A stretch of 45,631 nt of DNA from an uncultured Thermococci archaeon (GCA_964615185.1 CAZTOS010000009.1:1-45631), one strand, 5' to 3'. Shown: positions 5,606-43,705, counted from the stretch's first letter. Numbers and translations: made by a program. Notes: generated by a model from the letters alone, not told the origin.

Positions 5606-5996
5606 TCTCCCTCACAAAAGTTAAGATTTCTTCAGCAGCTTTGATTGCTTCTTCAGCATCAATCCTATCGTAATACTCGTAAGGCGAACCTTCAATATAT
5701 GCATCTGGATAACGCGGAGGTATGTAGTGTCTGTCTAACAATCGGGCATTTCTAAGCAAATTCTCTGGTACTTGTACTTCCTTAGATAAAATGTCCAGAA
5801 GTTTCTTAATAGAGTGTCCATACGCCATTATTCCCAAACCATACAATAATGCTTTGACTGCCAATTCAGCAGCCTGTTGTGCTTTAAAGCATGCCCAGCT
5901 ATAATCCCCACTGTCCTTGTCTCTAACTGCACTTCTTAATGTATACTCCGCATGCTTAAACCATCTTAGGAACTCTTCTTTATCAAACACCGTCAA
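5574..5996 (-). CDS. HEPN domain protein (COG2250-like)
   Basis: WACFxAQQAAExAVKA, GHS and YIPPRYPDA motifs; paired with an MNT. The true start may be the GTG at 5990. Confidence 0.9.
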   Translation of the reverse strand: MTVFDKEEFLRWFKHAEYTLRSAVRDKDSGDYSWACFKAQQAAELAVKALLYGLGIMAYGHSIKKLLDILSKEVQVPENLLRNARLLDRHYIPPRYPDAYIEGSPYEYYDRIDAEEAIKAAEEILTFVRESANASIQKRD

Positions 5997-13654: not shown

Positions 13655-16600
13655 TCAGAGGGAAGCCCAAATTTCAATTCCCGCTTCAAGCAGGCGTTTA
13701 AGCTCCCTTCCAATTGGCGTGTTCTTGTTCACCTTAACTATGCCCTTTTTTGATGGCGTTGCTGTGAACACATACTGCTCTCCGCCGAAGAACTTCAAAG
13801 GTTTCTTTGCGTAATCTGGTGAAACTCTTAGGACAATCTGCTTTTTCTTTTCTTCAACTTCAACTGGTATCTTCTCTTTTGGCATCTCTTTCATTTTCTC
13901 TTCAAAGCTCCTTACATCAATGCTTATGCCCAGTCTCTTCTCAATCTCTGTGATCCTCTTGCCTTTCTTTCCAATTATTGTAGGAATATCGAACTCATCT
14001 GCATATATCACCGCTTTGTGTGGACTCACAAGTTCGACCTCAGCATAAACATCGGGCAAGAATTTCTTTATTTCCTGCTTTAACCTCTTCTCAGCCAGTT
14101 TCATTGCAGGTGGCTTTTCCTTCTTTTTCACTGGAACAACACTTATTTCCTCACCGTAGGTGTAGATTTCATATTCAAGTTCTCCAGTCTCAAAGTCCCT
14201 AACCTCAATCACTGGCCTTGCCAAGTCTTCCTCCGTCATTCCGCTTGGTACCTTAACTTTATACTCAAGCGTAAGAACTTTATCAACCCTTCCCGCTTTG
14301 ATGAAAATCACTGTATCAACTATCTGCGGTATCATGCCCAATTCAACTCTCCCAATGAAACGCTGAATTGCATCTATGGGCTTAGTTGCATGAACCACAC
14401 CAACCATGCCAACTCCAGCCAGCCTCAGGTCAGCATAAATCTTGAAGTCACTTGTCTTCCTCATTTCGTCGAATATTGTATAATCAGGCCTAACTAAGAG
14501 TAAAACGTCTCCAGTTTTTTCCATTCTGCCACCAAGGGCTGTATATTGAGTTATTTCCTCGCCTACCTGCAAGTCTCTTGGCTTTTCCATTGTCTTAACT
14601 ATCTTGCCCATTGAAGCATAGTATTCAGCCAAGGCCTGAGCAAATGTCGAATTATGAACCAGCACCGGTGTGCTTCCAGCAATGAAGTTGTGGTTTGCCA
14701 CTGTTATATCATAAACCTCAAAGTTGCCCCTCAGCTCTTCAATTTCTTTGATCCTATCCCAGAAGATGTTTTCGTCAAGCATCAGGGTGAGATGGGAAAG
14801 ATACTCTTCAATTAGCTCGGCTCTGGTGTAGTACTCCTTAATTGCCATTTCAATTAGATTTTTGAGTGTTGAAACTCTTATCTCGGCTCCCGAAAGGAAA
14901 AGACTGAGCATCGATCGGGACATTGTACCCCATGTTAGCCGTCCAGTTTTTCTGAACAGCATTGTCAGCAGAGCTCTGACCTCATCACTGAGAAATTCCC
15001 AGATTTCAACTTCACGTTTCAGAAGGCCAGTTTCTTCATAAAAAGCCTTTATGAGTTTGGCTATTGTTGATGGCATAGGTATTCTTTCACCTTTAAGCCA
15101 CAGTTTGGGTCCTAAAGGATCAATTCTGTTTCTCCTATAGAAATCATTGGAAACATTAGAATGCACGAACTCCACAAGCTCTTTCCAACGGTTAAGCTCT
15201 TTTGCATACTCAGCGAGTTTTCTAACTGAGTTTTCAATTGAAAGATACTCTTTATAGAGTTGAAGGTATTCCAGGTAAACCTTCCTGAGTCTTTCTGGAG
15301 AATAAGAGGCCTTAAGCGGATCCTTGAAGGGTGTCCTAAGGAGAAGTCCAAGGTTTTTTATCGTTTCTCCAGCTGGAATTGTGCCAATGTTGGGATTAGA
15401 CTGAACATTGAGATGCTTTTCAAACCCATTAACTTTGAATCTTGGTTGGATGAGCTCATAAAACCTTCTTATATCTTCGGAGTTTTTTATAAGCACTCTG
15501 TAGTAGGGGATGCCCTTAACAAATTTCTCAGCTATTATTGATGGAATTCCAAGACGGAGGAGTAAGTAGTGAATCCCAAAAGCAAAGTCTCTGCTTGCCG
15601 TTACTATTTCAAGCTCCCTTCCGATGTGGCCGTCTCCTTCGAATACACCTCTAATGAAGGATGCTATTCTTCTCTCATCGGCACGGAATACAAGTTCTGG
15701 GACTCTTATTGTCCTTGCTTTTTTCTTCTTAGGGTACCCCAAGGCTTGAAGAAGCTTTTCAATTGTTTTTGATCTTCTAACACGCAATCTGCCTGGAGCA
15801 ACAAAGTAGAAGTCTCCCTCATCTACCCCGAAAACAGACATGACCAGATGTTTAAAGTGCTCCACCAAATTCTCATCAAAGTTGTTGAACTCAAAGGAAC
15901 TTCCAGAACCCTCAGCCCACATCAGTCCAAGGAGCTCAAAGAATTCATCACCAAGCTCAATGAACGGAGGTATCTCGCGTGAATCTCTGTGGTTTTTTCC
16001 TCTGTAAAATACTCCAACCGCTTCTTTGGGAGATGCTTCACTAAGTGGAACGATTCTGCCATCTCTAAGCCGCGCAAAGAAGCCCTTCTCAACCAGCTCT
16101 CCAATCCAGAGCCTTTCAGGGAGAGTGGAATTAACTCTGATTTTTCTCGGAACGGCTATGGGAGAGCCAACTTTGAGGTCATGAGCATCCTCCCAAATTA
16201 CAAATCCATTTTTTATAGTCAAGACAGGATGATTGGGGGTGAGGATTATTTCCCTACCCGTAGCAGTTTTTATCCTAAGAAGCCGGGTTTCGCTCCTCTT
16301 GTAAACTCGCTCAATTCTCTGTGCTTCAATTCTGTTATGAGACAACGTTAAGACTTTCATTCCTGGTCTTAACGAAGAAATTGGGGCAAAAGTCCCGTCA
16401 GCGAGAAGCACCGGTGTTTCCGGTGGTAAACACTTACCCTCTCCAGGGGCACCTGCTATAAGTATTCCTTCTGCTTTATCAGTCAACCTCTCCAAGAGCT
16501 TCTCGCTCAGCTCATAATCCTCAATGCTGAGCTTTACAATTGGTCTCACTGCTGTAATTTCAATTCTGTCAGCAAATGGTGGCTTTGCGATTACAATACG

Positions 16601-17245
16601 GTAGTTTCTAAGTTGAACAACGGTTGCTCCTGGCTCATCAAGTTCAATGAAAGATTCTGGATCTCTCTTTGCTCTCTCTACAATATCATCGGCAATCTCC
16701 TCAAGCTCCTCGTCTGTTAGTGGTTCCTCTCTAATCGGAACCAAACGCCATTCGCCAGGTTTTCCTTTCTTAGCTAATGGCCTTACACCAGCCTTAAGGT
16801 GAACGCTCATGGTGTGCTCATCAAAGAAATCTTCCAAACGGTGCTTTACCTCTTTTCTGCCTGTTAAATAGACAACTTCAATTCCCTTAGCTATTGCAAT
16901 ATCCCTCTGGACTTTGTCTCCAGTAATGAGAACTGCATTGAGCTCTCTTGCAACTTCTCTGACCATGTGGTCTATCTCTCCGGCTTTTGCTCTCTTAATC
17001 TGCCAAAGTTCTGGTCTCTCTCCATAGAATTCAAGTAAAATTTTGTTTTCATCTGCCATTTTTCTGAGCTTTTTGAGCTCTTCCAATCCTACATGACCTA
17101 TTGCTTTGCCCTCGTTAGCCTGATGCTCAATCTCAGCAATGACAGCCTCTGGAATGACAACCTTAACCTTCTCACCCAGACTCCCCAGATATTGAGTCAA
17201 TCTCCCATCTACAATCACACTTGTATCTGCCACAAACACTTTCAT
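13655..17245 (-). CDS. PIN domain-ATPase-KH protein (PINA-type), intein-containing; about 602 aa after splicing
   Basis: N-terminal PIN domain (DTSVIVDG, ELE, ITGD), split Walker A GAPGEGK/ST, FDEMR, GVVHAT and KH motif IIGKKG. Confidence 0.92.
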   Translation of the reverse strand: MKVFVADTSVIVDGRLTQYLGSLGEKVKVVIPEAVIAEIEHQANEGKAIGHVGLEELKKLRKMADENKILLEFYGERPELWQIKRAKAGEIDHMVREVARELNAVLITGDKVQRDIAIAKGIEVVYLTGRKEVKHRLEDFFDEHTMSVHLKAGVRPLAKKGKPGEWRLVPIREEPLTDEELEEIADDIVERAKRDPESFIELDEPGATVVQLRNYRIVIAKPPFADRIEITAVRPIVKLSIEDYELSEKLLERLTDKAEGILIAGAPGEGKCLPPETPVLLADGTFAPISSLRPGMKVLTLSHNRIEAQRIERVYKRSETRLLRIKTATGREIILTPNHPVLTIKNGFVIWEDAHDLKVGSPIAVPRKIRVNSTLPERLWIGELVEKGFFARLRDGRIVPLSEASPKEAVGVFYRGKNHRDSREIPPFIELGDEFFELLGLMWAEGSGSSFEFNNFDENLVEHFKHLVMSVFGVDEGDFYFVAPGRLRVRRSKTIEKLLQALGYPKKKKARTIRVPELVFRADERRIASFIRGVFEGDGHIGRELEIVTASRDFAFGIHYLLLRLGIPSIIAEKFVKGIPYYRVLIKNSEDIRRFYELIQPRFKVNGFEKHLNVQSNPNIGTIPAGETIKNLGLLLRTPFKDPLKASYSPERLRKVYLEYLQLYKEYLSIENSVRKLAEYAKELNRWKELVEFVHSNVSNDFYRRNRIDPLGPKLWLKGERIPMPSTIAKLIKAFYEETGLLKREVEIWEFLSDEVRALLTMLFRKTGRLTWGTMSRSMLSLFLSGAEIRVSTLKNLIEMAIKEYYTRAELIEEYLSHLTLMLDENIFWDRIKEIEELRGNFEVYDITVANHNFIAGSTPVLVHNSTFAQALAEYYASMGKIVKTMEKPRDLQVGEEITQYTALGGRMEKTGDVLLLVRPDYTIFDEMRKTSDFKIYADLRLAGVGMVGVVHATKPIDAIQRFIGRVELGMIPQIVDTVIFIKAGRVDKVLTLEYKVKVPSGMTEEDLARPVIEVRDFETGELEYEIYTYGEEISVVPVKKKEKPPAMKLAEKRLKQEIKKFLPDVYAEVELVSPHKAVIYADEFDIPTIIGKKGKRITEIEKRLGISIDVRSFEEKMKEMPKEKIPVEVEEKKKQIVLRVSPDYAKKPLKFFGGEQYVFTATPSKKGIVKVNKNTPIGRELKRLLEAGIEIWASL
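14651..16432 (-). mobile_element. Intein (594 aa) with LAGLIDADG homing endonuclease, inserted in the Walker A motif
   Basis: Starts CLPPETPVLLADG; block B TPNHPVL; endonuclease motifs LLGLMWAEGS and FIRGVFEGDG; ends VYDITVANHNFIAGSTPVLVHN followed by Ser+1. Confidence 0.96.
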
Positions 17246-18081: not shown

Positions 18082-18620
18082 TAATCCGCAGGCTATGCAT
18101 TTGGAGAGTATTTGAAGAAAAAAGGGTACACAGTTGATGTGGATGTTAGAAAAACTGTAACTGTCGAAAGGATTATGGAAGTAAGGATATGAACCCAATG
18201 GAGCAATTGTGGAAAGTTATGATAGATTATTGCCATGCCTTGAGGAGTATACAGCCAAGATTTTGGAACTTAAGCAGAATATGTTCTTATTGATACTCCC
18301 GGTCAAATGGAAATTTTACCAGAGCCGCTTGTTGTCTATTATTTAGTCCAGAGGTCTAAGGCTCGGTTCAACCACAATTCTCCGCTTTGAATAAAATAGA
18401 CCTAACAGACGATTAAACAGACACAAGCAATATCTTATGGAATATTTAACATCCAGACTAAAGCTTAATCCCTCAACACGGGGATTGTTGGCATATAAAT
18501 TAGCCAGAAGTTTCTCCACCTGTTGGGATCTTGTATCTCTCAGCAAAGAGTGGGAAGGGATTCGAAGACTTAGAAACTGTTGCATATGAGCACTATTGCA
18601 CCTGTGGAGATTTGCCCTAA
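18078..18620 (+). pseudogene. Degraded GPN-loop GTPase gene (multiple deletions and frameshifts)
   Basis: Fragments in shifting frames: AFGEYLKKKGY, DVRKTVTVERIME, GYEPNGAIVESYDRLL, YVLIDTPGQME, LPEPLVVY, YLTSRLKLNPSTRGLLAYKL, LYLSAK and GFEDLETVAYEHYCTCGDLP*. The P-loop is missing. Confidence 0.88.
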
Positions 18621-18816
18621 GTAGACATTAATTTAAGCGTTATGTTGATAAATATTACGTTACACCTTTGGTTAAGAAAAAATATTTTTATAAACTTATC
18701 AAAATTTAAGAAAAAGATTTGGATTAATTCAGAAAAGGGCTCTTCTTGAAAGAGTCCTCCAATTTTGAATCAAGATGTTTTAGAAAATATAAGATAGAGA
18801 GTATGGAGGTTATCTT

Positions 18817-21800
18817 ATGGGAAAGTCTATTTCCCATAAGGTGATAACATTAATGGTTGTTTTTCTAGTAATTACCCTTCCAGTAGCTTATGCGAACAGT
18901 TTGCCACATTCAGTTTTTGATGGACAAAAAGTCGAAACCAATAAAGAGACGTCCATAACTCCCGCATATATCTCTCAAGATAGTTACACAGATAAGGACT
19001 TAAAGAAGGAACTTGAACTCAAGTACACATACAATCTCGATGAGTTCATTGAGATGCTGAATAGGGATCCTGTGGAAATCTTTTGGTACATAAGGAATAA
19101 TTTTGATTATGAACCCTACTATGGAAGTATGAAAGGTCCTGAAGGAACGTTTCTACAAAGAAGTGGAAACGATTTAGACTTGGCAAATCTTTTGGTGGAG
19201 ATTTACCGTCAGTTGGGGATCCCCGCGAGATACGTTAGGGGGAACATAATCCTAAGTGAGGAAGAACTTCAAAAATGGTTTGGTCTTGATGACGTTGAGA
19301 GGGTTTTAAAGGCTGGACTAATTCCCTACGAAAAGAATGGGAATAGATACATAGTGGAGCACTTTTGGATGGAGGCTTACATAAACGGAACTTGGATTCC
19401 ACTTGATCCATCATTTAAGGAGTATGAATATATCGCTCCAGAGGTAACATCTGAGGACATTAGCTTGGACTTTGGGGAGATGATAAACAGAACAATTGAG
19501 AACACCGTTTTTGAAAACGGCAGTGCGATTTTACCCATGGTATCTTCCGATGTTTATGAAGAGCTCTCTCCAGATGTATATGAACCCTTTGGAGAAAACC
19601 TGTCCAAGATAGCCGAGAGGTACATAGGAAACGTGAGTCAACAGAGCGTTTACAGAACGTTAAAGAACTTGGAAAACTTTGAGTATGGAGTGTTTGGCCA
19701 GTGGAGAATAGTCAAGGTTGTTAGTGGTGAATTCCCAAGTGAACTTCCCTATGAAGTTAACAACGTGTTGGAGGAATTTTCTTCAATCCCAGTGGAACTC
19801 AGGTATCAGGTAAACATCTATCTCCCAATTAACGGGTTAAACATTACACTAAACATAAGTGAAATAAACGGCAAGAGGGTTGTCTTGACTTATCTTCCCT
19901 ATAACCAGAGCGATATGAAGTTTCTAAGGAATTATGAATCAATAGAGGAAGTCCCAATAGACAAGGTCAACGTTACTCCTGCCCTCTTGGTAGATGGAGT
20001 ACCCATAAGGGTTGGAGAGAAAACGCATTTAGGAACTAAGGACAACTTAACGATAGAAGTTCATATTGGAGAGTATTCCTTTGGAAGAGATAGAACGGAA
20101 ATAACGATAGGAGGAGATTACGTCATTGGAATAAACGCCCTTAGGGTCAGTGACCAATTCCTCGATTACCGTGTGAACAGGTTTAAGATCACTAAATTCA
20201 TGATTGACAATGGGTTTAGAAACGTTACAAGAGAGGAAGTGGCAGGGGAACTTTTGAATTTAATAGCCCTAACCTATTGGTATAGATTGGATCGCTATGC
20301 CAGCAGGTTATCGAGAAGCTTAGAGATTAAGTGGATCAGAATGCCCTCAATTCTGGTCACAGGCTCTGCATGGCGGATTGAGAACAACACGATCAAAATG
20401 ATAGGAATGTTCATGGACATTCACAAGGACTACTACATTCCAATCCAAAAAGATGGAGACAAAAACAAAGAAAGGGCATTCATGATAGAGACTGGCCTTA
20501 GAGGGGCTAAGCTCGAATATGAAGTTTTTGAGGATATTCTCGGAATAACAGCAGTCTCAACTGCAAAGATATTTGAGATATCCCAAGAACTCGGCATTCC
20601 AATTGTGATAGTGAACTCGACCAACGCAAACACTACAATCCCAAGCTTGGAAGTTAGTGACTTTGTTAAGGAGAAGGTTAGGGAAGCAGTGGAAAAGGGT
20701 TACGTTGTTCTCATTCCTCAAAGGAACATCGTCATAAACGACTGGGAAGGAACGGGGTATTACATAATCGATCCAGAGACCGGTGCAATGGCCTACATGC
20801 TGAGCGAGGGCATTAGAGGTGGGTGGTCGTGGTCAAGCGTCTGGGAATGGGCAAAAACTGCCGCGGACATGTTACTCACGGTTGCGATTGAGTCCTTAAA
20901 GGTAAAATGGAAAGGGATAGGAGAGGTAGTGGATAAAATAGTAGACACAATAAAGAAGATCATAACAGTGGGATGGTCTGATTATGAGGGTATGAACACT
21001 TGTGAAGTCTGGGTGAAGGTTATCAATGTTCTTATGGATATTATAGCCGATTTTGGATTTGCCGCAATGTCAACCGTGGAGATGGCAGAAATCGTTGCAA
21101 TGTACTCTGGACCTCAAGGATGGTTGGTCGCCATTGCTTTAAAGGCTGCTGAAATTGCTGTGATGGCATTATGTTCTAACCTAGTAACGGGACTCCTCAG
21201 GAAGATATTTGGACTTGATGACCCAAGGAGCAAATGTGCCGGGCCTGAGCTTGTTGTCCATGAACGTAGTAGTCTTGAAGAGATAAAGTACGGAGAAAAA
21301 AGGTACAACTTCTATGCCTTCCGTATCGGTAACAAGGGGTCCTGGAATACGGAGCTGAAGTGGGAGATACCAGAGGACTTCAACTGGAGAAAGGCAGAAA
21401 GCAGGGCTGGTATATGGTACATATCCCCCTCAAAGGGCACTATCTGGGGTTCTTCCTCTAAGTACAGAATAAATTTTGATGAAGTCTATTTGAGCATAAA
21501 TACAAAGTGGATAAGCAAAAAGTATCTAACCAAAATCATGAAAAACCAAGGAATAGTCGAATACAAGATCCCGATAAAAACGAATGACATCCATGCTCCC
21601 CTATACGTGGTGACGGTAAGATATCGGCTGGTTGAGGATCTGGCGATTAGTCTGGACCACACACTTATTACCCTGAGATATCCTGAGGGAAGTGAAGACA
21701 CGGATTACATCTATATCAAAACTTACATGACCAATGCATCATTAAAAATAACCCCAGAAAAGGTTAGCAGAGTCGGACTGACAGTTTCTTATCCAAAGCA

Positions 21801-24800
21801 CCTTGAGGTAGGAGAGTGGCACAAGATAGAAATAACCTCATCGAACGCTCCAAAAGGAAATCATGAAGTCATGTTGACACTTGTGGTCACCTACAAAAAG
21901 ACTACAAAACGGATAAATGTTCCTATTTTCATAGATGTGTATGGAAAAGAAGAACGCGAAGACGGAGGGGAGTCCCCTGATACCAGTGTTCCAGGGAATG
22001 ACCATCCAGATGATAATTTTGATGTTCCAAGAATTAGTCTAACTAAGGAAATCTCCTTCTATAGCTTGCTGAGGGAAGGCATTAAGAAAAACATAAGTGA
22101 GGCAAAGGAGCTTTACACTCTGGCGAACTACCTTTCTATGCTCTCTAACGCGACCTCAATCAACGTAGGGGATTATAGGGAACTTGCCATGGAGACCTCA
22201 AAGCTGTACAAAATGCTCTCAGCGAACCTTGAGTTCTTGAAGGACTTAAACGAGAAAGCACCATCCGTTGCCGTCTTTAAGAAAGGCTTCTATGTGGGGA
22301 CAGAGAACCTGTTGAACAGTGCGAAGATAGCTTTTAGAGAGGTTGAACCTGAGGAGTTCGATCCCCTTCAGTTGGTTAAGCATCAAAAGATACTCATACT
22401 GTCGAGTGGTTCGCTCTTTGGAATGAATACTCAATCGTTTAAAGAAAAGCTTAGACTATACCTCGAGAATGGAGGCAACATAATAGTCTTCGACCAGCAG
22501 TATGGTGAAGATTATTCGGTTATCCCCGGAGGATTGAATGGTTATGGATGGGCCCAAGATCAAATGTGTCATAGCTTTTCCTTATATGCCGCTCAAGATC
22601 ATCCAATACTCTCAACATTAACGAGAAACGAAATAAGCGAGGAAGTTGATGGATACTTCGATACGTATCCACCCAATTCAATAGTGCTGATGAGAAGAAC
22701 TAAGAATCACTTCCCGGCAATGCTCCTTTACGAGTATGGTAAGGGGCATGTTTTAGCTACAACACTCTATTCCGATTGGAAGAGCCAAGATAGTATTTCT
22801 TGGTTCATGGTTAACATTCTGAGGGATGCAATTGCATATTTGGAGCTCAAAGGAAACATATATGAGATCGGGACGAAAAAAGCATGGTTCGGTTTCTACT
22901 ATACAAACGCCACGTACTTGATTCCAATAAAAGTGAACAATCCCACAAACGTTGATGCAGAACAGATTAAGCTGAGGTTGATACGGCCAGACGGAAAAAT
23001 CACAACAGAGATAATCATAAACAAGAGCATAAAGGCTGGAGAAGAGAGTGTTATACATGCCAATATCTCAAAGGAGAACTTAAAGCCACTGCAGTTTGGC
23101 ATCTGGACGGTTGATTATTCCCTAATCGACCACAACGGCAGAGAAATTTACTCTAAATACGATGCAAAAGGGATATCAGTAAACTACTATACTGACAATG
23201 ACTACATCTTCAACTATCAAGGGGGAGAAAAGTATCTGGTTTGGATAACTTCATCCAAAGAGAACACCCTTTTCGGTGAACCGATAAACATGACGCTTCA
23301 CATAATAAACAATGACGATCAAGCTTTGAGTGGACAGGTTGGTATAGGACATCACATAGGTGGGTGGCGTGTTCTCGAAGTGAAAAACGTGACCATCAAT
23401 CCGGGTGAATACAAGAAGATAACCTTCACGGTTTATCCATATGCAGATGTTCGCTCATGGGGTGGGCATGAGCCCGGCTTGACTTACTACATAGGCTTTT
23501 ACAGGGACAAGTCTCCCTATGAAGGGCATGGCAACTTCAATGATGCGTTCTTGAGAGCGGAGAAAGGAGTGTATGTGAGGTATCCAGATGTTTCACTAAG
23601 AGGGAGTGTGGATAAGACTTCCTATGCTCCTGGAGAAACCCTTCAAGCTCTTGCAAATATAACGAATGAGAATGAGATAGACTGGAAGTTGTACTTGAAA
23701 GTGAACATCTTCAGATGGAAGTGGGTGGGAGATGAAAGGGTGAAGGAGCTCATAGTATCAGAAGGGAAGCTCATTCAACTTCCCGCATTTTCAAACACCT
23801 TAGAGAATCTTGAACTAAAGCTCCCGGATTCGTTGGAACTCGGTTATTACACTGTCGAGTTTCTGTTGATGGATGAATACAAGAATGTAACCGCTGCATT
23901 GAGCTATAGCGGATTTTCAAAAACAAAGCCAGAAGTGTTGTTCATGCAAAGGTTTGACTACAACCCCTTAACGTTCATCCTTCAAACGGAGGTGACCAAC
24001 AACATAAGCCTCAATTTCCCAGTCTTAAGAATCCACGAGTCCATTCGTGAATTTAACCAAGAGATCACGTATAAAGATTATGAGTTCAACTTAACCTTTG
24101 TGGACTTTAAGAACATCACTACAATACCAATCCAAGACGACATCTTTGGTGTGTACTCTTTTGCATACCAATTATACGATGGAAATGAATATATAGACAG
24201 TGGATATGCCACTTTTGAAAGAAAAATCATCTTAGAGCCAGAAATAGAGTTTAATGGGAGAGAGCTAAGCAATCTAACTTTAAGAATAAACATGACCAAC
24301 CCAACACAACTTGAAGAGGAGTTCGTGCTGAACGTAACCATCCCGGACATTAACTACACCTATACTACTCCATTAACACTCAACGCCAATGGAAGCAGGC
24401 TTCTCAACTTTACTATATTCATCCCCGAGATTGGGGAAGGAAGTCACGAGATCATTATAAGGGCACAAAAGGAAAGGGGGTACATAGAGAAGAAGGCTTA
24501 CTTCCACATCAGGTCTTCATGGTTAAGCGTATCTTTTGAAAGTAGGGACTACTCAGCTGGAGAGAATGCGACTGCCTATATAGAGAACGAGGGAGGAGTG
24601 TCAACGACTGCAAATGGGACACTCTACATCGAGAAGGATGGACAAATACTTTCAAAGAATGAATTCTCCATTTTAATTAAACCTGGTGAGAAGAAAGAGG
24701 TTAAAGTTCCGATTCCACTCAACATAACCCGTGGAGCATTGCTCGTTATAAACGTCACTGATTTGAAGGAAGGAAGAACTATTTCAAGGTGGACATGGCT

Positions 24801-27800
24801 TAGCTTAAAAGAGGCAATGCTTGAAGCAACTTATGAAACTGAAGTTTATGCCATGGACAACATGACCATTACCCTCACAAACGTGGGTGGATTGAGAGAT
24901 ACCCTAAACGTCACCATAACACTTAGGAGAAGCTGGTGGGATGTCGTGAAAACTCAAGAATACCACAATCTAACGTTTGGTATTGGAGAAAGCAAAAACG
25001 TCACTTTTGAGATTCCAAATGTTCAAAGCGGAGAATATGAGCTCATCATAAGTTCAATTGGAGAAGAAAGCAGACGTTCAAGCTTCCATGGAAGCTTAAA
25101 GATAATTGGAATGAACTTAACTTTCGAGACAGATAAGGATATTTACAATGCTGGCGAAAACATAACTCTAACAATTACGAACCATGGAGGGGGATATAGG
25201 CAGCTGAGATTAGAGGCTTGGCTTAGAGACAGCATGAACTTCAACTTGGAAAGCGAGCAAATAGCCATTGGGAAGCTCGAAAGCAAGCAAGTTGAATTTA
25301 ATATTCCAATAAGAACACCAACGGGAGAGTATATCTTTGTAGTCTATTATGATGGGAAGAGTTACTCAAAGAGGATTACCGTTAAAGGCCTTGAACTAAA
25401 TGTGAGTCTGGTAAGAGATTTCTATGACGTGGATGAGAGTGTGGAGCTCTTAGTGAACAATACGGGAAGCATAGATGCTGATTTAATCATAAATTACACG
25501 ATTGGAGGTATTAAGGACAACATTAGCACTTTTGTAGCGGCCGGCTCTTCAAGAGTTGTCCACTTAGATATTCCAAAATCTTTGAGAAGCTTAACCTATC
25601 AACTATCCCTTGAGATACAGGAAAGGAACACGGGGAAGATGTTCTATGAACAGTTCTACATTAGAGTTAGAGGTGCAGAGCTTGAGATAACTCCAAAAGA
25701 GACAAGCCTAACTACTGGAGAGAATTTACCAATCACGTTTAGGAACGTTGGAGGAATAAATCTCAACTTGAGCGTTGAACTCAAAGTCGAAGATTACACA
25801 ACAATCACAGCGTTTAACTTAATGAAAGGCGAAGAGAAAAATGTAACGTTTAGCTTGCCAGCTCTTTCTAAGGGTGAATATACTGTTTGGGTCATAGCGA
25901 ATGATAGCGTAACAGGAAGACAGTTTTCAACTTCATTCATGATTTCCGTGAGTGGATTCGTTATTAGGGCATCTCTAAACAAGGATACCTTCTCAATCGG
26001 AGAGATAGTAAATATAACACTCTACAACGAGAATCCAAACTTAGATGCCCAATGTGATTACACGCTGTATTTGAGGGACAAAGATGGAAACCGCTTCGAT
26101 GTTGGGAGTGGAGATGTCGTGATTCCAAGAGATTCTCAAGCCTACGTAGCTTTCCAAATTGAAGGACTTGCAAAGGGCAACTATTCCCTCACTATTAGGC
26201 TTAGGGAGAAGAACACCAACGAAGTGTTCCTAATAACGAAAAGACTCCACATCGAGGGGCTTTGGGGAGAAATTGAAGTTGACATGCCAAACGAAGTCTT
26301 TGCGGGAGATGAAATTAAGGTCTTGGTGAACTTGACTGGAAACACGAATGGGACTCTGAGGGTTAGCAGAGGAGCTAAGCTTCTGGTGTATCCATCTGGA
26401 ATTGGGAACATAGAAGTTGATGAAAGTGGCATTTGGATATTCTTTAGACACTATCTTGGGCTGTACGATGGTGAAGGGCTTGAGCTCTTTAAGTATCCCG
26501 TCTCGATTGGGCCGGCCTATGAGAGCGCCTACATACCAGCCGTTAACTTAGAGAAAGAAATATGGATTGGGTCTGGAAAGTGGATTCTCAGGTTTGATAA
26601 AAGCGCAGAAGAGTGGAACGTTTACAGCACTGAATCTATAGACGGATTTCCGGCCTACATAGAAAACTGGTGGGGTAGGGAAGAGGTTCAAATAATGGAC
26701 ATAGCCTACTACAACAACTCCCTCTGGGTTGGCACAAATGGAGTTGGTTTGATCAGGGTGAACACCTCAACGATGAGAGTGATTGCCATTTATAACTCAA
26801 GCAACAGCATCATGCCTTTCGATTATGTCATGCAACTGAAGGTAAACGGAAGTGCCCTTTGGGTGGTCTCTTTGGGAATAATAAAAATCAGCAACGAATG
26901 GCAATACATAGATCCCAGCGAATTCAACCTTGATTACATAGATGCAATAGAAATCGTGAACGACGAGCTCTGGGCTGGTGGAGGCAACGATCAAGGGGTG
27001 GCAGCTTGTAAACTTGGTGGAGAGTGTATAACAAATCTTCCAGCTTGGAGAATAAGTAGGCTTGAGCACGATAATGAGTCGCTTTGGATAATCTATGTCT
27101 CATGGGAAAATATTGGCTCAAGCAGGTACTACTTTGAGAACGGCACAAGAGAAGATTATGGTATCAATACGTTCTGGGGAAGCTTGATTGACGTAGAGGA
27201 TAGCATCTACGCCTCGAGCAAGTTTGGAATAATACTCAATGGAGAGCAAAAGACGTTTGGCCCAATCGGGAGTGTGGTGGATATAGCTTACCATGACGAG
27301 AAGGCTTATTTACTTACAGAGAGTGGCATTAATATCTACGACTTTGAGAAGGATGAGTGGAGCTACCTAACGCAGGAGGAATTAATGTATGGAGGAAACA
27401 TTCATTATGCAAGCAATAGACTTTGGATAACTAGGTGGGACAGCCTTGTTTCCTACAACATAAACACTGGAGAAATAGTGGTTTACGATTCTTCGAATTC
27501 ACCATTCAGCTCTTCAAGAAACCCCACATCAATCACCGGAAACGATACTGTCCTATTCATTGGAACGAACGATGGTCTTGTGATCTTTGACCTAACGAAT
27601 AACATATTCAATATTGTGCACTCACCATTGCCGAGCAATGGCATTAGAGACGTTTACCTATTTGAAGATGAGCTCTGGATTGCGAGTGACGATGGTGCTG
27701 GAATTTACGATATTGAAAGCAATGTATACGAACCCTACTTAACGGGAGAGATGACGAGGAAGGTCATCGCAAACGGAAAAGAGGTATGGGTTGTCTATGA

Positions 27801-30800
27801 AAACAACAACCTCTGGAGGTACTTGAGGGACAGTGATACCTTTGAGATTTACAACTCAACCAATGGTTTGCGCGAAGGATACATCGAGGACATTGCAAAG
27901 TTCAACAACATGCTCTTCGTGGCGTATTCCGATGCTCAAAACATTTCGGTGTTCGATGGAAGCGGATGGTCCATACTTGATATTCCAGCATATACCATCG
28001 AGAGCACTGAGTCCATGATTTTCTTTGGTGGTAGTGAATTCATAGTTTATTCGGGAGACGTTTATGAGTTCCCGCTAACTTTAGGGGTGAATGAGATCAT
28101 CCTAAGTCCAATTGAAAAACCCGGGGAATTCGATTATGAGTTTGTCCTTCAAACCCAAAAGATGCAACTTCTTGATATGAAGAAACACCATATCAGAGCC
28201 TACGAAAGGGACATCTACGCTGATTTATACACTCCAAAACTTCTCTACAAGAAAGGGGAAGAAGCCATCTTTGAAGTGATACTTAGAAACAACGCACCCT
28301 TAAGGGACAACGTGACTTATGAACTCATCTTAGGTAATGAGACGTTTGAAGGGAGCGTCCTTCTTGAACCAGCACAGGAGATGAAGCGCACATTCACGGT
28401 AAGGTCTGAGGGTGACTTCAATGCAACCCTCAGGGTTGGGGAAAGGGAAATAGTTAAGAAGGTCACGGTGGTCGAGCCGAAGGGCGAGGTAAGAGTAGAT
28501 GCACCCGATATTGTCGGATACTTGGAGCCGTTCAACGTGTCTCTGAGTATAATCAACACTGGAGAAGTAAGTCTCGAGGTGAACGTTAACTTCGATGGAA
28601 GTGAATTCAACTTGACGATTCCAGTGAACAAGAGCGTTACATTGACCAAGGAGTTCAGGATAAGAGAGGACAAGAACGTGAGCATTGAGATTTCGGGGGA
28701 TATTAGAAAGAACGTTAAAGAGCTCATAAGAATGGGCGAGAGTGTTAAAGTGATCTTTGAAGATAAATACCTCCTTGCACCAGGTTACAATGAACTTCCG
28801 TTTGAAGTCAGGAATGAGGGGAGTTTAGACTCAACCTTTAACTTAAGCGTATCATCCGAGACCTTCAAGTATGTGAAAGAATTAACAATTCCAAAGGGAG
28901 AAAATACAACCTTATATCTGCCCGTTTATTTAGAGGCTGGGACTTATGAGGTCAACTACACAACGAAGTTCGAAAACGGGAGTTTTGTAATCGAAGTTGT
29001 GGAGGAGAAACTTGAAGTGAACGCCTCACTGGAGAGGGAGTACAACATAACAATTTCAAACTTAGCTCCTTTGGACTTTGTGGGGACTCTGGAGATTGTT
29101 TCCTCAATACTCTCAAACACGACAAACGTGACGATTTCATCTGGGTCTTCGATCCATCTATCATTTAATGTGGGTGATTTAGAGGCCGGAACTTACAACG
29201 TCACGGTTAAGATAACGAGGAACGGCAGGATGATATTGGAGAAAACGTTTACCTACAGTCTGAGCCCTATTTACTCCATTGAGATCGAGGGGACTAAGAA
29301 CGAGTACAAGCTTGATGAAAATGCAACGTTCACAGTCAAAGTCAAAAACGTTGGAAATGCTATTGGGGAAGATTTGCTAACGTTTGAGATTCCGGGGATC
29401 TACAAGAAGGAGAGTTCTCTAACATTGAAGCCCAATGAGGAGATTGAGAGGGAGTTCAACGTAACGATGCCCAAAGACTTGCCAAGCAGGGAATTTAAGG
29501 CAGTTGTAAGCATTGGAAACATGACAAGTGAGATGAGCTTCAAGTTGATTGGGGTTAACCTAACGGTTACACCTTCCCTTAATAAGGACTACTATTATGA
29601 GGATGAGAACGTGACATTCACCCTAACCATCAGGAACAATGAAAACATAACACTTAATGGAAACATAAGCGTTGTCTGCGGTATCTTCAACTCAACTGAA
29701 CCTTTTGAGATTGGGTACGAGGTTAAAACGTTCAACTTCACATTCCCAGCATGCGATAGGGTATTCTACAGTGTTAGATTGGATAGCGGAAGGCTGATTC
29801 ACATAGACTCAAGGAAGATTCCAGTGCATGAGAGGGGTTTAGAGGTGTTGCTCTACACGGATAAGAGCAGGTACCACATTGGAGAGAACATGACGATTTA
29901 CATTTCGTCGAACAAGCCAACAACGTTGGCAATAGTTGTTTTCGGTAATGTGACATTTGTGAACGTGACCCAAAACACCTCTCTAACGCTTCAAGTCCCA
30001 GACGTTCCCAGTGGAACCTATGAGATAGTCTATTCAACTGAAGAGGAAACGTATACGTACGAGTTCGATGTTATTTCACCCAGTGCCAAAATCTTGGACT
30101 TTGAACTCAAGGCAGAGACTCTAAATCCAGAACAGAACATCTCATTTAGGGTTAATGTTTACTCGGATGAAGAAGTTTTGGGCAAGATAAAGGTGTGGCT
30201 CTACAATGAGAGGAACTTGTTGATTGATTATTATGACCAGGTGATCACACTAAGTGCGGGAGAAAACGTGTTGGATGTGAACACCACGATGAGTGTTCCA
30301 AGCATTGGAAACTACTACCTACTTTATGCAATCTACAGGGGATTGAATTCAACGCTTTTAGCCTCTGGAGTTCAGACCTTACAGACCGAGGGGGCAACAA
30401 TAGTCAGCCTCGCATCCGACAAATCTGAGTACTATGAGAATGAGAACATTAATCTAACTGTTGTTGTTTCGGGAGATAAAGGGGAATACACAATAGTGAT
30501 AGAGGGGTTAGAGGAAGTTTTAAGGGAGAACATAACAATAGATGGCACAAGAACCCTTAATTACATCCTACCGGCTTCAAAATTTGAGAAGACCATAACA
30601 GTGAAGCTGATCTATAAGGAGTACACGGAAAGCGAGAGCTTGGACATTATGGTCATTAACTTGCCACCTAAAGCCAGCTTTGATATTAAAGGGGAACCAA
30701 AAGTTAATTCGACTTTGATTTTTGATGCTTCTTTGAGTTCTGACCCGGGAGATGATGCACTCACATACGTTTGGGACTTTGGAGATGGACATGAAATAAC

Positions 30801-31278
30801 AACTGAAAATCCAATAGTTGAGCACGTATATACTAAAGCTGGTAACTACACGGTTACATTGAGAGTCGTTGATGAACAAGGAGAATTCGACATTTATAGC
30901 GAGCAAATTGAAATTCTAAGTGTGGCTGAAGAAACTCCCATGGAGGAGAAAGAAGAGAATGCACTTGCAACGTTGCTCTTGTTGGCAAAGACATGGACAC
31001 TCAGATTCTTAAAGTTCCATAGAGAATATGAAGATTTAATAGCAAGAGCTAAAGAGCTCGAAATTGATAACGAAACACTAAGTAATATTACTACTATTCA
31101 CGAAAACGCTACAGATTTAATTGTAAGCGCATGGAGAGTTAACAGCTTGGAGGATGTTAAAAAGGTCATCCGTTATCAAGGAGAACAGAGATACGTGCCC
31201 AGGGCATGGGACATAAGGAAAGCATACCTCATGGAAAAAAGAATAGTAGAGATACTCAGGGAGTTGCTAAAAGAGTAA
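18817..31278 (+). CDS. Giant (4153 aa) exported multidomain protein: signal peptide, transglutaminase-like domain, hydrophobic helical segment, GATase-like domain, many Ig-like repeats, beta-propeller, PKD, pyrolysin-like C-terminal helical domain
   Basis: Uninterrupted 12.4-kb ORF with a GGAGGT RBS at 18805 and signal peptide ...LPVAYA. Motifs: GNDLDLANLL/ARYVRG/EHFWMEA/WIPLDPSFK; repeated DK..Y..GE...T..N.G units; LWVGT/LWIAS propeller blades; FDAS.S.D...WDFGDG...HVY...GNYTVTL PKD. Many N-x-S/T sequons. Confidence 0.9.
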   Translation: MGKSISHKVITLMVVFLVITLPVAYANSLPHSVFDGQKVETNKETSITPAYISQDSYTDKDLKKELELKYTYNLDEFIEMLNRDPVEIFWYIRNNFDYEPYYGSMKGPEGTFLQRSGNDLDLANLLVEIYRQLGIPARYVRGNIILSEEELQKWFGLDDVERVLKAGLIPYEKNGNRYIVEHFWMEAYINGTWIPLDPSFKEYEYIAPEVTSEDISLDFGEMINRTIENTVFENGSAILPMVSSDVYEELSPDVYEPFGENLSKIAERYIGNVSQQSVYRTLKNLENFEYGVFGQWRIVKVVSGEFPSELPYEVNNVLEEFSSIPVELRYQVNIYLPINGLNITLNISEINGKRVVLTYLPYNQSDMKFLRNYESIEEVPIDKVNVTPALLVDGVPIRVGEKTHLGTKDNLTIEVHIGEYSFGRDRTEITIGGDYVIGINALRVSDQFLDYRVNRFKITKFMIDNGFRNVTREEVAGELLNLIALTYWYRLDRYASRLSRSLEIKWIRMPSILVTGSAWRIENNTIKMIGMFMDIHKDYYIPIQKDGDKNKERAFMIETGLRGAKLEYEVFEDILGITAVSTAKIFEISQELGIPIVIVNSTNANTTIPSLEVSDFVKEKVREAVEKGYVVLIPQRNIVINDWEGTGYYIIDPETGAMAYMLSEGIRGGWSWSSVWEWAKTAADMLLTVAIESLKVKWKGIGEVVDKIVDTIKKIITVGWSDYEGMNTCEVWVKVINVLMDIIADFGFAAMSTVEMAEIVAMYSGPQGWLVAIALKAAEIAVMALCSNLVTGLLRKIFGLDDPRSKCAGPELVVHERSSLEEIKYGEKRYNFYAFRIGNKGSWNTELKWEIPEDFNWRKAESRAGIWYISPSKGTIWGSSSKYRINFDEVYLSINTKWISKKYLTKIMKNQGIVEYKIPIKTNDIHAPLYVVTVRYRLVEDLAISLDHTLITLRYPEGSEDTDYIYIKTYMTNASLKITPEKVSRVGLTVSYPKHLEVGEWHKIEITSSNAPKGNHEVMLTLVVTYKKTTKRINVPIFIDVYGKEEREDGGESPDTSVPGNDHPDDNFDVPRISLTKEISFYSLLREGIKKNISEAKELYTLANYLSMLSNATSINVGDYRELAMETSKLYKMLSANLEFLKDLNEKAPSVAVFKKGFYVGTENLLNSAKIAFREVEPEEFDPLQLVKHQKILILSSGSLFGMNTQSFKEKLRLYLENGGNIIVFDQQYGEDYSVIPGGLNGYGWAQDQMCHSFSLYAAQDHPILSTLTRNEISEEVDGYFDTYPPNSIVLMRRTKNHFPAMLLYEYGKGHVLATTLYSDWKSQDSISWFMVNILRDAIAYLELKGNIYEIGTKKAWFGFYYTNATYLIPIKVNNPTNVDAEQIKLRLIRPDGKITTEIIINKSIKAGEESVIHANISKENLKPLQFGIWTVDYSLIDHNGREIYSKYDAKGISVNYYTDNDYIFNYQGGEKYLVWITSSKENTLFGEPINMTLHIINNDDQALSGQVGIGHHIGGWRVLEVKNVTINPGEYKKITFTVYPYADVRSWGGHEPGLTYYIGFYRDKSPYEGHGNFNDAFLRAEKGVYVRYPDVSLRGSVDKTSYAPGETLQALANITNENEIDWKLYLKVNIFRWKWVGDERVKELIVSEGKLIQLPAFSNTLENLELKLPDSLELGYYTVEFLLMDEYKNVTAALSYSGFSKTKPEVLFMQRFDYNPLTFILQTEVTNNISLNFPVLRIHESIREFNQEITYKDYEFNLTFVDFKNITTIPIQDDIFGVYSFAYQLYDGNEYIDSGYATFERKIILEPEIEFNGRELSNLTLRINMTNPTQLEEEFVLNVTIPDINYTYTTPLTLNANGSRLLNFTIFIPEIGEGSHEIIIRAQKERGYIEKKAYFHIRSSWLSVSFESRDYSAGENATAYIENEGGVSTTANGTLYIEKDGQILSKNEFSILIKPGEKKEVKVPIPLNITRGALLVINVTDLKEGRTISRWTWLSLKEAMLEATYETEVYAMDNMTITLTNVGGLRDTLNVTITLRRSWWDVVKTQEYHNLTFGIGESKNVTFEIPNVQSGEYELIISSIGEESRRSSFHGSLKIIGMNLTFETDKDIYNAGENITLTITNHGGGYRQLRLEAWLRDSMNFNLESEQIAIGKLESKQVEFNIPIRTPTGEYIFVVYYDGKSYSKRITVKGLELNVSLVRDFYDVDESVELLVNNTGSIDADLIINYTIGGIKDNISTFVAAGSSRVVHLDIPKSLRSLTYQLSLEIQERNTGKMFYEQFYIRVRGAELEITPKETSLTTGENLPITFRNVGGINLNLSVELKVEDYTTITAFNLMKGEEKNVTFSLPALSKGEYTVWVIANDSVTGRQFSTSFMISVSGFVIRASLNKDTFSIGEIVNITLYNENPNLDAQCDYTLYLRDKDGNRFDVGSGDVVIPRDSQAYVAFQIEGLAKGNYSLTIRLREKNTNEVFLITKRLHIEGLWGEIEVDMPNEVFAGDEIKVLVNLTGNTNGTLRVSRGAKLLVYPSGIGNIEVDESGIWIFFRHYLGLYDGEGLELFKYPVSIGPAYESAYIPAVNLEKEIWIGSGKWILRFDKSAEEWNVYSTESIDGFPAYIENWWGREEVQIMDIAYYNNSLWVGTNGVGLIRVNTSTMRVIAIYNSSNSIMPFDYVMQLKVNGSALWVVSLGIIKISNEWQYIDPSEFNLDYIDAIEIVNDELWAGGGNDQGVAACKLGGECITNLPAWRISRLEHDNESLWIIYVSWENIGSSRYYFENGTREDYGINTFWGSLIDVEDSIYASSKFGIILNGEQKTFGPIGSVVDIAYHDEKAYLLTESGINIYDFEKDEWSYLTQEELMYGGNIHYASNRLWITRWDSLVSYNINTGEIVVYDSSNSPFSSSRNPTSITGNDTVLFIGTNDGLVIFDLTNNIFNIVHSPLPSNGIRDVYLFEDELWIASDDGAGIYDIESNVYEPYLTGEMTRKVIANGKEVWVVYENNNLWRYLRDSDTFEIYNSTNGLREGYIEDIAKFNNMLFVAYSDAQNISVFDGSGWSILDIPAYTIESTESMIFFGGSEFIVYSGDVYEFPLTLGVNEIILSPIEKPGEFDYEFVLQTQKMQLLDMKKHHIRAYERDIYADLYTPKLLYKKGEEAIFEVILRNNAPLRDNVTYELILGNETFEGSVLLEPAQEMKRTFTVRSEGDFNATLRVGEREIVKKVTVVEPKGEVRVDAPDIVGYLEPFNVSLSIINTGEVSLEVNVNFDGSEFNLTIPVNKSVTLTKEFRIREDKNVSIEISGDIRKNVKELIRMGESVKVIFEDKYLLAPGYNELPFEVRNEGSLDSTFNLSVSSETFKYVKELTIPKGENTTLYLPVYLEAGTYEVNYTTKFENGSFVIEVVEEKLEVNASLEREYNITISNLAPLDFVGTLEIVSSILSNTTNVTISSGSSIHLSFNVGDLEAGTYNVTVKITRNGRMILEKTFTYSLSPIYSIEIEGTKNEYKLDENATFTVKVKNVGNAIGEDLLTFEIPGIYKKESSLTLKPNEEIEREFNVTMPKDLPSREFKAVVSIGNMTSEMSFKLIGVNLTVTPSLNKDYYYEDENVTFTLTIRNNENITLNGNISVVCGIFNSTEPFEIGYEVKTFNFTFPACDRVFYSVRLDSGRLIHIDSRKIPVHERGLEVLLYTDKSRYHIGENMTIYISSNKPTTLAIVVFGNVTFVNVTQNTSLTLQVPDVPSGTYEIVYSTEEETYTYEFDVISPSAKILDFELKAETLNPEQNISFRVNVYSDEEVLGKIKVWLYNERNLLIDYYDQVITLSAGENVLDVNTTMSVPSIGNYYLLYAIYRGLNSTLLASGVQTLQTEGATIVSLASDKSEYYENENINLTVVVSGDKGEYTIVIEGLEEVLRENITIDGTRTLNYILPASKFEKTITVKLIYKEYTESESLDIMVINLPPKASFDIKGEPKVNSTLIFDASLSSDPGDDALTYVWDFGDGHEITTENPIVEHVYTKAGNYTVTLRVVDEQGEFDIYSEQIEILSVAEETPMEEKEENALATLLLLAKTWTLRFLKFHREYEDLIARAKELEIDNETLSNITTIHENATDLIVSAWRVNSLEDVKKVIRYQGEQRYVPRAWDIRKAYLMEKRIVEILRELLKE

Positions 31279-31429
31279 ACTGGCAAGGTAAAACCTGTTT
31301 CTTTTCCTCTTTAATTTTTAAGACCTTTGTTCATTATTTGTTTAAGATTATTGAAAACGCTTGCAAAGAGAAAGGAAAAAGTCTTTTCTACTCCAATCAT
31401 ATATCCTACTATGCCTGGAGGTGAGAGGA

Positions 31430-38812: not shown

Positions 38813-40000
38813 TCAAATGTTCGGTATTCCTAAGTTTTTCAATAATTGTTTCCAATTCTCTATAAGCTCAGTATATGTTATTATTTCATATCCTCTGAGT
38901 TTTTCATTTAAACTTTTGAGTCTTCTCTTTTCTTCATTAGACATCTTAGAACTTAGCCCTATTATTAAACGCCCCTCAACATTATTTACTGAAATATTAG
39001 GCAACTGTTGACGTAGAATTAGTATGTTCTCTCTAATTTTATCCAAATAATTTTCAATCTGAGCTTTTGCTTCTCTAAGCTCCTTACTTTCACAGAGATT
39101 TTTTGTAAAAAGTTTTTTAGTAGGTGACTCAATTTCTACAACGATATATTTTCCATCTGGAGTCTCCACAATAAAATCTGGATACAAATCCTTCTTAATG
39201 TCTGGAATACGGAATTTTGGAAAAAGGTTCTTATATTCAATATATAAGAGACATGGATTTTGTTCTAAAAATTCTTGTATTTCGTTTTCACTCACATTCT
39301 CTTTATGCACTAATTTTTCAAATTCCAATAAGGTACCTACTAGTCCTAGTACTCTATCAACAATCCCCTTTTGAAGCAGGTCCCTAATAACCTTCTCTCC
39401 TTTGAGGTATCTATTGAATTCTTGTTCAGCATGAAACTTTGCATTTCCTTCGTCAAAAAAGTCTTCGCTTTTTGTTTTAATAAGCCACAAAAATGGAAAT
39501 CTCTTGATAACTTTATTTCCATAAATATCTACACAACCAATTCCAACATCTATTACTTTTATATCAGCACCTTCATGTAATTTAATAAAACTTGACATGT
39601 CCCCAATTATGTTCGGAATTGATCTCGCAAAGCAAGAGAGGATATCTGCATATTTTTGATAAAAGTTTAAGTGAAACAGATTAATAGACTCTATCACTAT
39701 GGATTTACCCTTAACTTCAAAAAGTGTTTCCAATTTCCCATTCATTTCGGGGAATATCACTTTCTCAATAGAAGTACCAACTCTCCTAATTTCCATTTCC
39801 CATCTATCTCTTTTTTCTAAAAATTCGATTACAACCCCATCATTTCCAATAATAACAACTATATAATATGGATGAATGAGATAGTCTGGGAAAATTAATT
39901 TTGGCTCTATGAATCTTGAGTATGTAGAAACTTTCTCTTGGAGAGTTTTTATGAACATATCTACAAACTTTCTGACTTTTTCTTCTGATAATCCTGTCAT
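38813..40000 (-). CDS. Shedu (SduA/DUF4263)-like anti-viral nuclease with an unknown N-terminal domain
   Basis: The C-terminal ~165 aa read E..IQEFLEQNP.LL...PDF.....VVEIESP...LF.....S.EL..A..QI.NY...GRLIIG......L.......IITY.EL. The DNA is visibly AT-richer than its neighbours. Confidence 0.8.
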   Translation of the reverse strand: MTGLSEEKVRKFVDMFIKTLQEKVSTYSRFIEPKLIFPDYLIHPYYIVVIIGNDGVVIEFLEKRDRWEMEIRRVGTSIEKVIFPEMNGKLETLFEVKGKSIVIESINLFHLNFYQKYADILSCFARSIPNIIGDMSSFIKLHEGADIKVIDVGIGCVDIYGNKVIKRFPFLWLIKTKSEDFFDEGNAKFHAEQEFNRYLKGEKVIRDLLQKGIVDRVLGLVGTLLEFEKLVHKENVSENEIQEFLEQNPCLLYIEYKNLFPKFRIPDIKKDLYPDFIVETPDGKYIVVEIESPTKKLFTKNLCESKELREAKAQIENYLDKIRENILILRQQLPNISVNNVEGRLIIGLSSKMSNEEKRRLKSLNEKLRGYEIITYTELIENWKQLLKNLGIPNI

Positions 40001-42996: not shown

Positions 42997-43705
42997 ATGA
43001 ACTGGCAATCTGCCTTGAACAAATTCCTCAAGGATTGGAAAGACAAGGACTTTGTCGAAGCAGTTCTGCTCACAAGGAGTTATGCTGTTGGATTACAAAC
43101 CAAATACTCTGATGTAGATGTTTACATCGTGCTTTCTGATAAAGTCGAATACTTTGCAAACCCGGTAAAACAAATTAGACACTACTTTGAAAAAGAATTC
43201 AAGCAAAATAAAAGGAGTACTACAAGAATCATCACAATTGGCAAAGTCCTCTTTGATAAGACAGGAATAGCTGAAGAACTCAAAAAAGAAGCGCTGAAAT
43301 ACATGAAAAAGCCCTTTGAGAAACCTGATGAAGTTTGGGTAGAGATTGCCAAATACTTTCTCTGGGATTAGCTACCTTTATTACCTAACGCTTATCAAGG
43401 CTCTTGAAGTTTACCCAAAGTTCCTCTGTGTTGAGGCCCCTCCAGCAAGCAAAGTTTATCGCCTCTTTACGGATGAGAAGTTTAGAAAAGCCTACATGTT
43501 CGAAGAATTTCCAGACAAAGAATTTGTTGGGCTGTTCCTGAGTGCTATGAAAAGTAAGGAACTAAAAAACCTCGAATTACTTATAAAGTACATCTTTAAT
43601 AAAATGGGTGGCTTCAACATTAATGGCTGGCGGCTGAGAACAAAAACCGAAAATATAAGTCAGCTGACTTCAATCCTCTCAACAAGTTTTCTTCGAATTT
43701 CATAA
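42997..43705 (+). pseudogene. Nucleotidyltransferase-domain gene split by a frameshift or deletion
   Basis: The first frame has LLTRSYAVG....SDVDVYIV (GS motif altered to RS) and EYFANP and stops at 43371. A second frame carries the apparent C-terminus (...FNKMGGFNINGWRLRTK). Confidence 0.7.

Follow-up and report, generated by a model that had tools for sequence, protein, structure and literature searches.

The window, a 45,631-nucleotide stretch of DNA from an uncultured Thermococci archaeon, carries at 18817..31278 (+) a single open reading frame of 4153 aa without an internal stop codon, the longest in its genome. Because contigs from three other DNA runs span all 30 bins of the ORF region and none of the 12 listed indels (of 24) from those runs falls within it, the ORF is no assembly artefact; these independent contigs, together with the existence of full-length orthologues, also rule out an assembly chimera. 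An RNA run gave short contigs in 16 of the 30 bins, several of them 87–94% identical, which is no evidence of transcription. A scan for sigma-70 promoters found nothing, though this bacterial-type consensus is unsuited to archaea.

The gene lies in a lone insertion of 12.7 kb (18622..31340). The site is empty in all five same-genus genomes compared, where the upstream gene directly adjoins asparagine synthase, and one contig in run X9 joins 18614 directly to 31350. Its conserved core was found in six of 97 family genomes, including its own, one copy being a broken fragment, and orthologues in other genomes occupy other sites. This patchy distribution, with the empty sites and differing locations, argues that the window gene is an accessory single-gene insertion. 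We rejected a mobile element or phage origin, as there are no terminal repeats (the longest match shared by the two ends is 8 bp) and no convincing viral fold; the insertion has a GC content of 41.9%, as compared to 40.6% for the genome. Immediately upstream (18082..18620, +) is the frameshifted remnant of a gene that we take to be GPN-loop-GTPase-like from its DTPGQME motif, and in which the other runs show three further indels. Elsewhere in the window, a low-GC stretch contains an anti-phage nuclease, Shedu SduA_C (38813–40000, −), a LAGLIDADG intein interrupts a PIN-ATPase-KH protein (13655–17245, −), smc and scpA are separated by inserted HEPN and nucleotidyltransferase genes (4896–5996, −), and a further nucleotidyltransferase is accompanied by a small partner ORF (42997–43705, +).

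Full-length relatives of the giant protein are found among Thermococcus species, including a named homologue on a 2.29-Mb contig of Thermococcus atlanticus, and in a cluster of which one member bears the name Bathyarchaeota; a more distant related giant occurs in Methanohalophilus mahii. The named closest homologues point to a host of Thermococcaceae type. In a FastTree phylogeny of 101 cores, the fused giants form a group (support 96) with long branches. The initial annotation described one 12.4-kb ORF and its component parts, all of which were recovered by hydropathy, domain and fold searches, in some cases with corrections given below. The N-terminus is a putative Sec signal peptide (aa 1–~26; 18817..18894, +), recognized as a hydrophobic segment (KD19 2.2), with a presumed cleavage site. 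Two modules follow, each of which has relatives that occur without the other.

The first is a conserved toxin-carrier core (aa 60–669; 18994..20823, +), consisting of a transglutaminase-fold domain and ~370 aa without a listed PDB match; for aa ~330–669, searched as part of a larger model, no known fold appeared among the PDB matches listed. Transglut_core matches aa 86–198 (19072..19410, +) with an E-value of 1.7e-13, and the domain resembles the pseudomurein endoisopeptidase PeiP (Z 10.7, rmsd 2.7, 127 aligned residues). At position 119, which we equate with the catalytic Cys on the assumption of a G-x-C-x-D motif, the window protein has Asp, and it keeps His182 and Asp197. Among 165 aligned cores this position is D in 127, A in 25 and S in 7, with Cys outside the six commonest residues, and the His and Asp are kept in 155 and 153, respectively. 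An active transglutaminase was rejected because the nucleophile is absent at position 119, and the head is predicted to be inactive; the transglutaminase-like region of the initial annotation thus retains the fold but not the enzyme. The mean pLDDT of the core model is 83.6, with confidence falling at the GG motif (WxGxGY..DPxTG..AYMISGG..GG; aa 643–669; 20743..20823, +), where the family homology ends and a low-confidence linker begins.

Searching with aa 60–813 and accepting clusters at E-values up to 0.001, we obtained a carrier family of 6,512 clusters; in nearly all of the best 150 representatives the match ends at about aa 670, at the GG motif. Tails of at least 90 aa follow the core in 141 of 151 carrier sequences and fall into 72 clusters, whereas the core preceding them forms one. 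At least two TM-like segments occur in 75 of these 141 tails, whereas not a single such segment occurs in the 160 aa before any of them. Domain scanning of 67 of 147 new representatives, picked for non-hydrophobic or long tails, named M23 (four), NlpC/P60 (six), M15 (two), SLT, Tox-REase-5, HINT plus AHH, a deaminase, and RHS (six), while many of the 67 had no domain match. Of 81 genome loci examined for stand-alone carriers, 53 were evaluable, and 33 of these have a small ORF downstream; Imm11, SUKH or CdiI was identified in six of 32 such ORFs scanned, and for multi-TM tails the next gene is a small multi-TM ORF in eight of nine cases. Locus L075 (5170–10248) of the vent archaeon Ca. Pyrohabitans is a textbook polymorphic toxin locus, with a transglutaminase-core toxin, a TM ORF, an orphan GG cassette and a second TM ORF. 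Given the swapped toxin tails, the downstream immunity genes and the L075 layout, the core family is a true polymorphic toxin carrier. This agrees with the family behavior described in the initial annotation, namely a core ending at GG and then variable C-terminal regions or RHS modules; the alternative of homologues conserved straight through the motif was not observed, as homology stops there.

Polymorphic toxins with an inactive N-terminal transglutaminase, followed by RHS repeats with C-terminal toxins, are described in the available part of Zhang et al. 2012 (PMC3482391). Our results extend the known inactive-transglutaminase toxins beyond the RHS type, to a family that numbers thousands of clusters and has a sharp swap point at GG. 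The carrier core also occurs on 18 plasmid records. In two family members (P0035 and P0052) the core and a hydrophobic tail are fused to an alpha-alpha toroid domain in place of the second module of the window protein. In genome G124 an intact core toxin of 1391 aa is followed by a multi-TM ORF of 251 aa (L017), and in G010 the core gene is cut down (L013:6654–7544).

Directly after the GG motif, the window protein has a hypervariable hydrophobic helical block (aa 670–806; 20824..21234, +), with hydrophobic helices at aa 731–800 and five helices predicted at low confidence (pLDDT 50–73). Among 11 giants the block occurs as four allele types with a cross-identity of 10–28%, as compared to 36–50% identity in the core and 41–72% in the GATase-like region further along. 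Two closely related giants, P0007 and P0171, are 87% identical in the block and 98–100% elsewhere, and the window protein (P0001) and P0003 are 90% identical in the block and 59–75% in the stalk. A profile of the giants' block matches the tail of a stand-alone carrier, P0153, at an E-value of 1e-5 (the best of 2,740 shuffles scored 0.017), the only clear match among 137 tails. The block has no Pfam match and no usable Atlas match, NCBIfam has no model in the variable region, and no RHS repeats were matched by the domain scan of the window protein, although other members of the carrier family have them. Its hydrophobicity is modest (KD19 maximum 1.86 in the window protein and below 1.5 in three of 11 orthologues). 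We regard the block as a candidate membrane-active payload. The payload is internal, with 3,350 aa after it, and so departs from the C-terminal toxin position of polymorphic toxins. No candidate immunity gene or orphan cassette was found next to the window gene, on either side, or next to the two orthologues for which flanking sequence was available.

The same block admits a second interpretation, that a toxin chassis has been domesticated as an adhesin or a self/non-self recognition protein. In this case peptides, glycans or surfaces would be the ligands of the dead transglutaminase and the propeller, and an allele-specific recognition tip would be formed by the variable helices with the following Ig pair. 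The nearly constant length of the block (126–137 aa), its largely retained Cys pair and the missing immunity gene all favor this, and inactive transglutaminases may merely anchor by binding peptides, as the available part of Zhang et al. 2012 (PMC3482391) suggests. Yet both parent modules are toxin carriers in stand-alone form, the payload resembles a stand-alone hydrophobic tail, and the region containing it is not enriched in N-glycosylation sequons (3 versus 4.4 in aa 670–1345). On balance we judge this interpretation unlikely, though deserving serious consideration.

Between the block and the second module lies a variable beta-rich region (aa 807–1045; 21235..21951, +), probably two Ig-like domains, with one weak Ig match; neither Pfam nor the Atlas gave a match for aa 807–1045. 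The acidic linker already recognized in the protein is present at aa 1045–1069, but it proves to contain a conserved family motif, PGNDHPDD (aa 1059–1066; 21991..22014, +), which signals the boundary between modules. Among 75 aligned rows, D1062 is kept in 66, P1064 in 66 and D1065 in 71, with DxPD lying outside the search patterns, while His1063 is kept in 46 and is Asn in 14. This motif surely represents both the start of a platform module and the boundary at which cargos are swapped.

The platform is a separate, widespread cargo-display module that the initial annotation did not recognize. It is defined by a DxPD[DE] motif, a GATase-like domain with DQxC, an MG/Ig stalk and a sorting C-terminus, all of which the window protein has. 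Its aa 1046–1520 also match proteins with unrelated N-termini, and a metagenome scan confirmed 248 platform stretches, of which 79 loci were kept. The N-terminal cargos (69 of at least 80 aa) fall into 21 clusters. Among 26 scanned, the domains found were Zn-phospholipase C (four), alpha/beta hydrolase (two), M23 (three), NlpC/P60, Amidase_3 (two), Amidase_6, RHS (two), Ig alone (three) and one benign-looking rhodanese-thioredoxin (L164), with no domain match in eight. Three platforms (L099, L100 and L119) carry RHS-DPxG-tail cassettes that end at the boundary motif, two of the tails being clearly hydrophobic. The stalk varies from roughly 1,800 to 3,300 aa across the family, and the C-termini vary, including TM anchors and other ends that we take to be sorting signals (presumed labels), as well as a T9SS-type tail (P0202) and PGF-pre-PGF plus TM (P0009). 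Some platform genes lack any cargo and still retain the DHPDD-type motif, a further point for the adhesin or recognition interpretation. NCBIfam has no model for the platform, and Pfam has no family for the segment, the best member matches being generic Ig units; in the Atlas it matches unnamed clusters at 0.89–0.91. We did not find the platform on plasmids. Neither it nor the window protein was found described in the literature, though Makarova et al. 2019, on archaeal toxin systems, or the supplements of Zhang 2012 may list members.

Considering the 51 non-redundant metagenome platform genes with room upstream, 43 have an exported ORF (up to 620 aa), tightly coupled, directly upstream; six have no upstream partner and two failed the signal test. 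Partner family tracks cargo family with an adjusted Rand index of 0.80 over the 43 pairs, among which kin are not independent. Identical cargo-partner pair types recur in separate platform clades, close platforms bear different cargos, and tandem truncated cassettes recur at platform loci. Platform loci thus have a layout that is the mirror image of toxin and immunity genes, with the upstream partners as putative immunity proteins. The window locus has no such partner, the broken housekeeping gene standing in its place. The platform's N-terminal slot and upstream partners can readily be mined for new enzymes that attack the envelope and for new inhibitors. In Hydrothermarchaeota, one platform gene (L196:1–6090, −) carries a helical cargo, and the three small exported ORFs upstream of it may form an immunity array.

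The GATase-like domain named in the initial annotation (aa 1148–1345; 22258..22851, +) has the expected fold (Z 17.0, rmsd 2.5, 176 aligned residues), in a model with a pLDDT of 85.2 in which the boundary motif is poorly placed, but the canonical nucleophile is absent. At the nucleophile elbow, which we placed by an assumed motif, aa 1226 is A, S, T, G or D and never Cys, and aa 1227 is Q in 74 of 75 rows. The protein shares its fold, though not its elbow Cys, with class I glutamine amidotransferase and DJ-1 enzymes, and an active protease or amidotransferase was rejected for want of that Cys. The best matches, the GH42 trimerisation domain, ThuA-like proteins and IFT52 (Z 15–17), are non-catalytic kin, which again favors the adhesin or recognition interpretation. 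The conserved DQxC contains Cys1251, the sole Cys between aa 808 and 2412, present in all 75 rows, a count inflated by one search pattern that contained Cys. A domain that cuts at or near DHPDD through Cys1251 would free a diffusible toxin of ~1,060 aa, a size fitting that of stand-alone toxins (~800–1,300 aa). The conservation of DxPD without its being a search pattern, its uncertain place in the model and the lone Cys all speak for such a launcher, and RHS cargos, whose autocleavage is described in the available part of PMC8636562, could not leave the platform without being cut a second time. We nevertheless consider a launcher improbable, as the elbow residue is not Cys, His1063 gives way to Asn in 14 of 75 rows, the Cys1251 count is inflated and the motif is retained in genes without cargo.

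Beyond the GATase-like domain, an Ig/macroglobulin-like stalk of 11 detected units (22897..26376, +), rich in sequons, leads to a beta-propeller region (26377..28071, +) with a PorZ_N_b_propeller match (E 7e-8), a second stalk of nine detected units (28222..30645, +), a PKD domain (aa 3950–4023; 30664..30885, +) and a C-terminal helical domain (30979..31278, +). An internal profile gave 20 Ig/MG-like matches in aa 1346–3945, of which eight were its seeds, and one match in 10 shuffles; ~15 or more units had been proposed. N-glycosylation sequons are ~3-fold enriched in the core and stalk (14 versus 4.2, 37 versus 12.8 and 34 versus 9.5). PDB sequence searches with the propeller and the C-terminal domain returned nothing significant. 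Matches to MG2 (E 5e-8) and A2M_BRD (E 1.5e-7) raise the idea of an alpha-2-macroglobulin-like protease trap or a surface-displayed nutrient enzyme, as does the sharing of the C-terminal domain with a large subtilase-like protein. We disfavor this idea as very improbable: the MG matches are generic Ig units, both enzyme folds lack their nucleophile, and unlike alpha-2-macroglobulin, which has a thioester domain, the window protein gave no TED match and has, at any of its nine Cys, no CxEQ, which we take to be the thioester motif.

Weak matches to the last ~100 aa occur in two further large exported proteins encoded by the same genome, a 2233-aa protein that we presume from its sequence to be subtilase-like (E 6e-4) and a second giant of 4134 aa (E 0.03). 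This suggests a Thermococcales envelope-sorting domain, for which neither Pfam nor NCBIfam has a match. A 4299-aa orthologue ends in PKD, a linker, a TM helix and a basic tail. Since orthologues have a membrane anchor at the position of this domain, tethering of the window protein to the cell, as the initial annotation claimed, is probable. The subtilase-like protein lies at C6:42052–48753 (−). The 4134-aa giant, on contig C8 (L191:2091–14495), has many CARDB repeats, PKD and an internal Gly/Ala-rich helical stretch (~aa 2740–3030) that is toxin-like in look; a gene labeled HTH-NTPase-TPR-like from its sequence follows it.

We lean modestly toward the view that the window protein is a cell-tethered contact weapon against non-self cells, in which a whole polymorphic-toxin cassette has been placed on a generic display platform. 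The chain would be exported by Sec through its N-terminal signal and held on the envelope by its C-terminal domain, as the orthologue anchors at that position suggest. The ~20 glycosylated Ig units and the propeller would then project the head, by up to ~80 nm if extended (an Ig unit spans ~4 nm), and help to grip a neighbor, although macroglobulin-type units may curl rather than extend. The dead transglutaminase carrier would bind envelope peptides of the target and shield the payload, with the propeller also contributing to target binding. Upon contact, the helices after GG would insert into the target membrane and permeabilize it, a role suggested by the pairing of family members with membrane immunity genes. 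The contact weapon is favored by the nature of the platform cargos, enzymes that attack the envelope and have cognate partners upstream, and by the accessory distribution of the gene; that adhesins are hypervariable too counts against it. Cleavage at GG and/or DHPDD is conceivable but rather doubtful, and the contact weapon does not require it. The lack of an immunity gene probably means that the target is a non-kin cell, or else that the tether itself protects the producer; the same non-kin argument is made, in the available part of a 2026 preprint, for a Thermococcus bacteriocin homologue without immunity genes (10.64898/2026.07.27.741052).

A broader proposal, to which we assign somewhat less than an even chance, is that the platform represents an undescribed ‘inverted’ class of surface-tethered polymorphic toxins in bacteria and archaea, in which N-terminal toxins and C-terminal sorting signals are both exchangeable and the cognate immunity genes and orphan cassettes lie upstream. 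By loading a second complete cassette onto it, vent archaea would have obtained a contact weapon that is nested and free of immunity genes, that may be directed against bacteria, and that a novel self-processing domain dependent on Cys may release. The window protein itself is predicted to work like a polymorphic toxin and appears to derive from two such families; it departs from them in the position of its toxin and in its lack of an immunity gene.

The likenesses to known systems are given here as the available parts of the cited papers describe them. Like the toxins of Zhang 2012 (PMC3482391), a family with immunity genes, the window protein has a signal peptide, a transglutaminase with a lost triad residue and swappable toxin parts; it differs in having no RHS and no immunity gene, in its internal payload after a ~600-aa core ending in GG, and in the fusion of this cassette to a C-terminally tethered platform of 3,100 aa, in an archaeon. 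Rhs toxins (PMC8636562) share the succession of carrier, boundary motif and payload, and RHS cassettes fill the platform slot in the three loci above, but the window protein has no RHS cage and no T6SS link. The X-Tfe/X-Tfi proteins of the Xanthomonas T4SS (PMC6536674) resemble the platform family in their variable peptidoglycan or phospholipid effectors, conserved C-terminal part and upstream immunity gene; that conserved part, however, comprises only ~120 aa and serves an injection machine as secretion signal, whereas the platform provides a ~1,800–3,300-aa stalk, a Sec signal and surface-sorting ends. VARTIG of the Thermococcales (PMC8416519) is likewise an exported Ig-domain protein with a hypervariable part, recent acquisition and toxin-like logic. 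It is, however, ~500–1,000 aa long with a variable C-terminal Ig domain, and heads an operon of small TM genes, whereas the window gene is a lone gene of 4,153 aa with transglutaminase and GATase-like domains; we rejected VARTIG membership, finding neither a downstream operon of small TM genes nor a hypervariable C-terminal Ig domain. The giant predatory proteins of Omnitrophota (bioRxiv 2023.11.21.568195) are likewise surface proteins of great length for which an attack on envelopes has been proposed, but they exceed 10,000 aa and bear multi-enzyme arrays, the available part of that preprint making no mention of amidotransferase, MG2 or macroglobulin. Very few cases of contact-dependent antagonism have been tested in archaea, and the window protein is a concrete candidate from the Thermococcales; its homologues in T. 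atlanticus and Methanohalophilus mahii make it testable in cultured strains.
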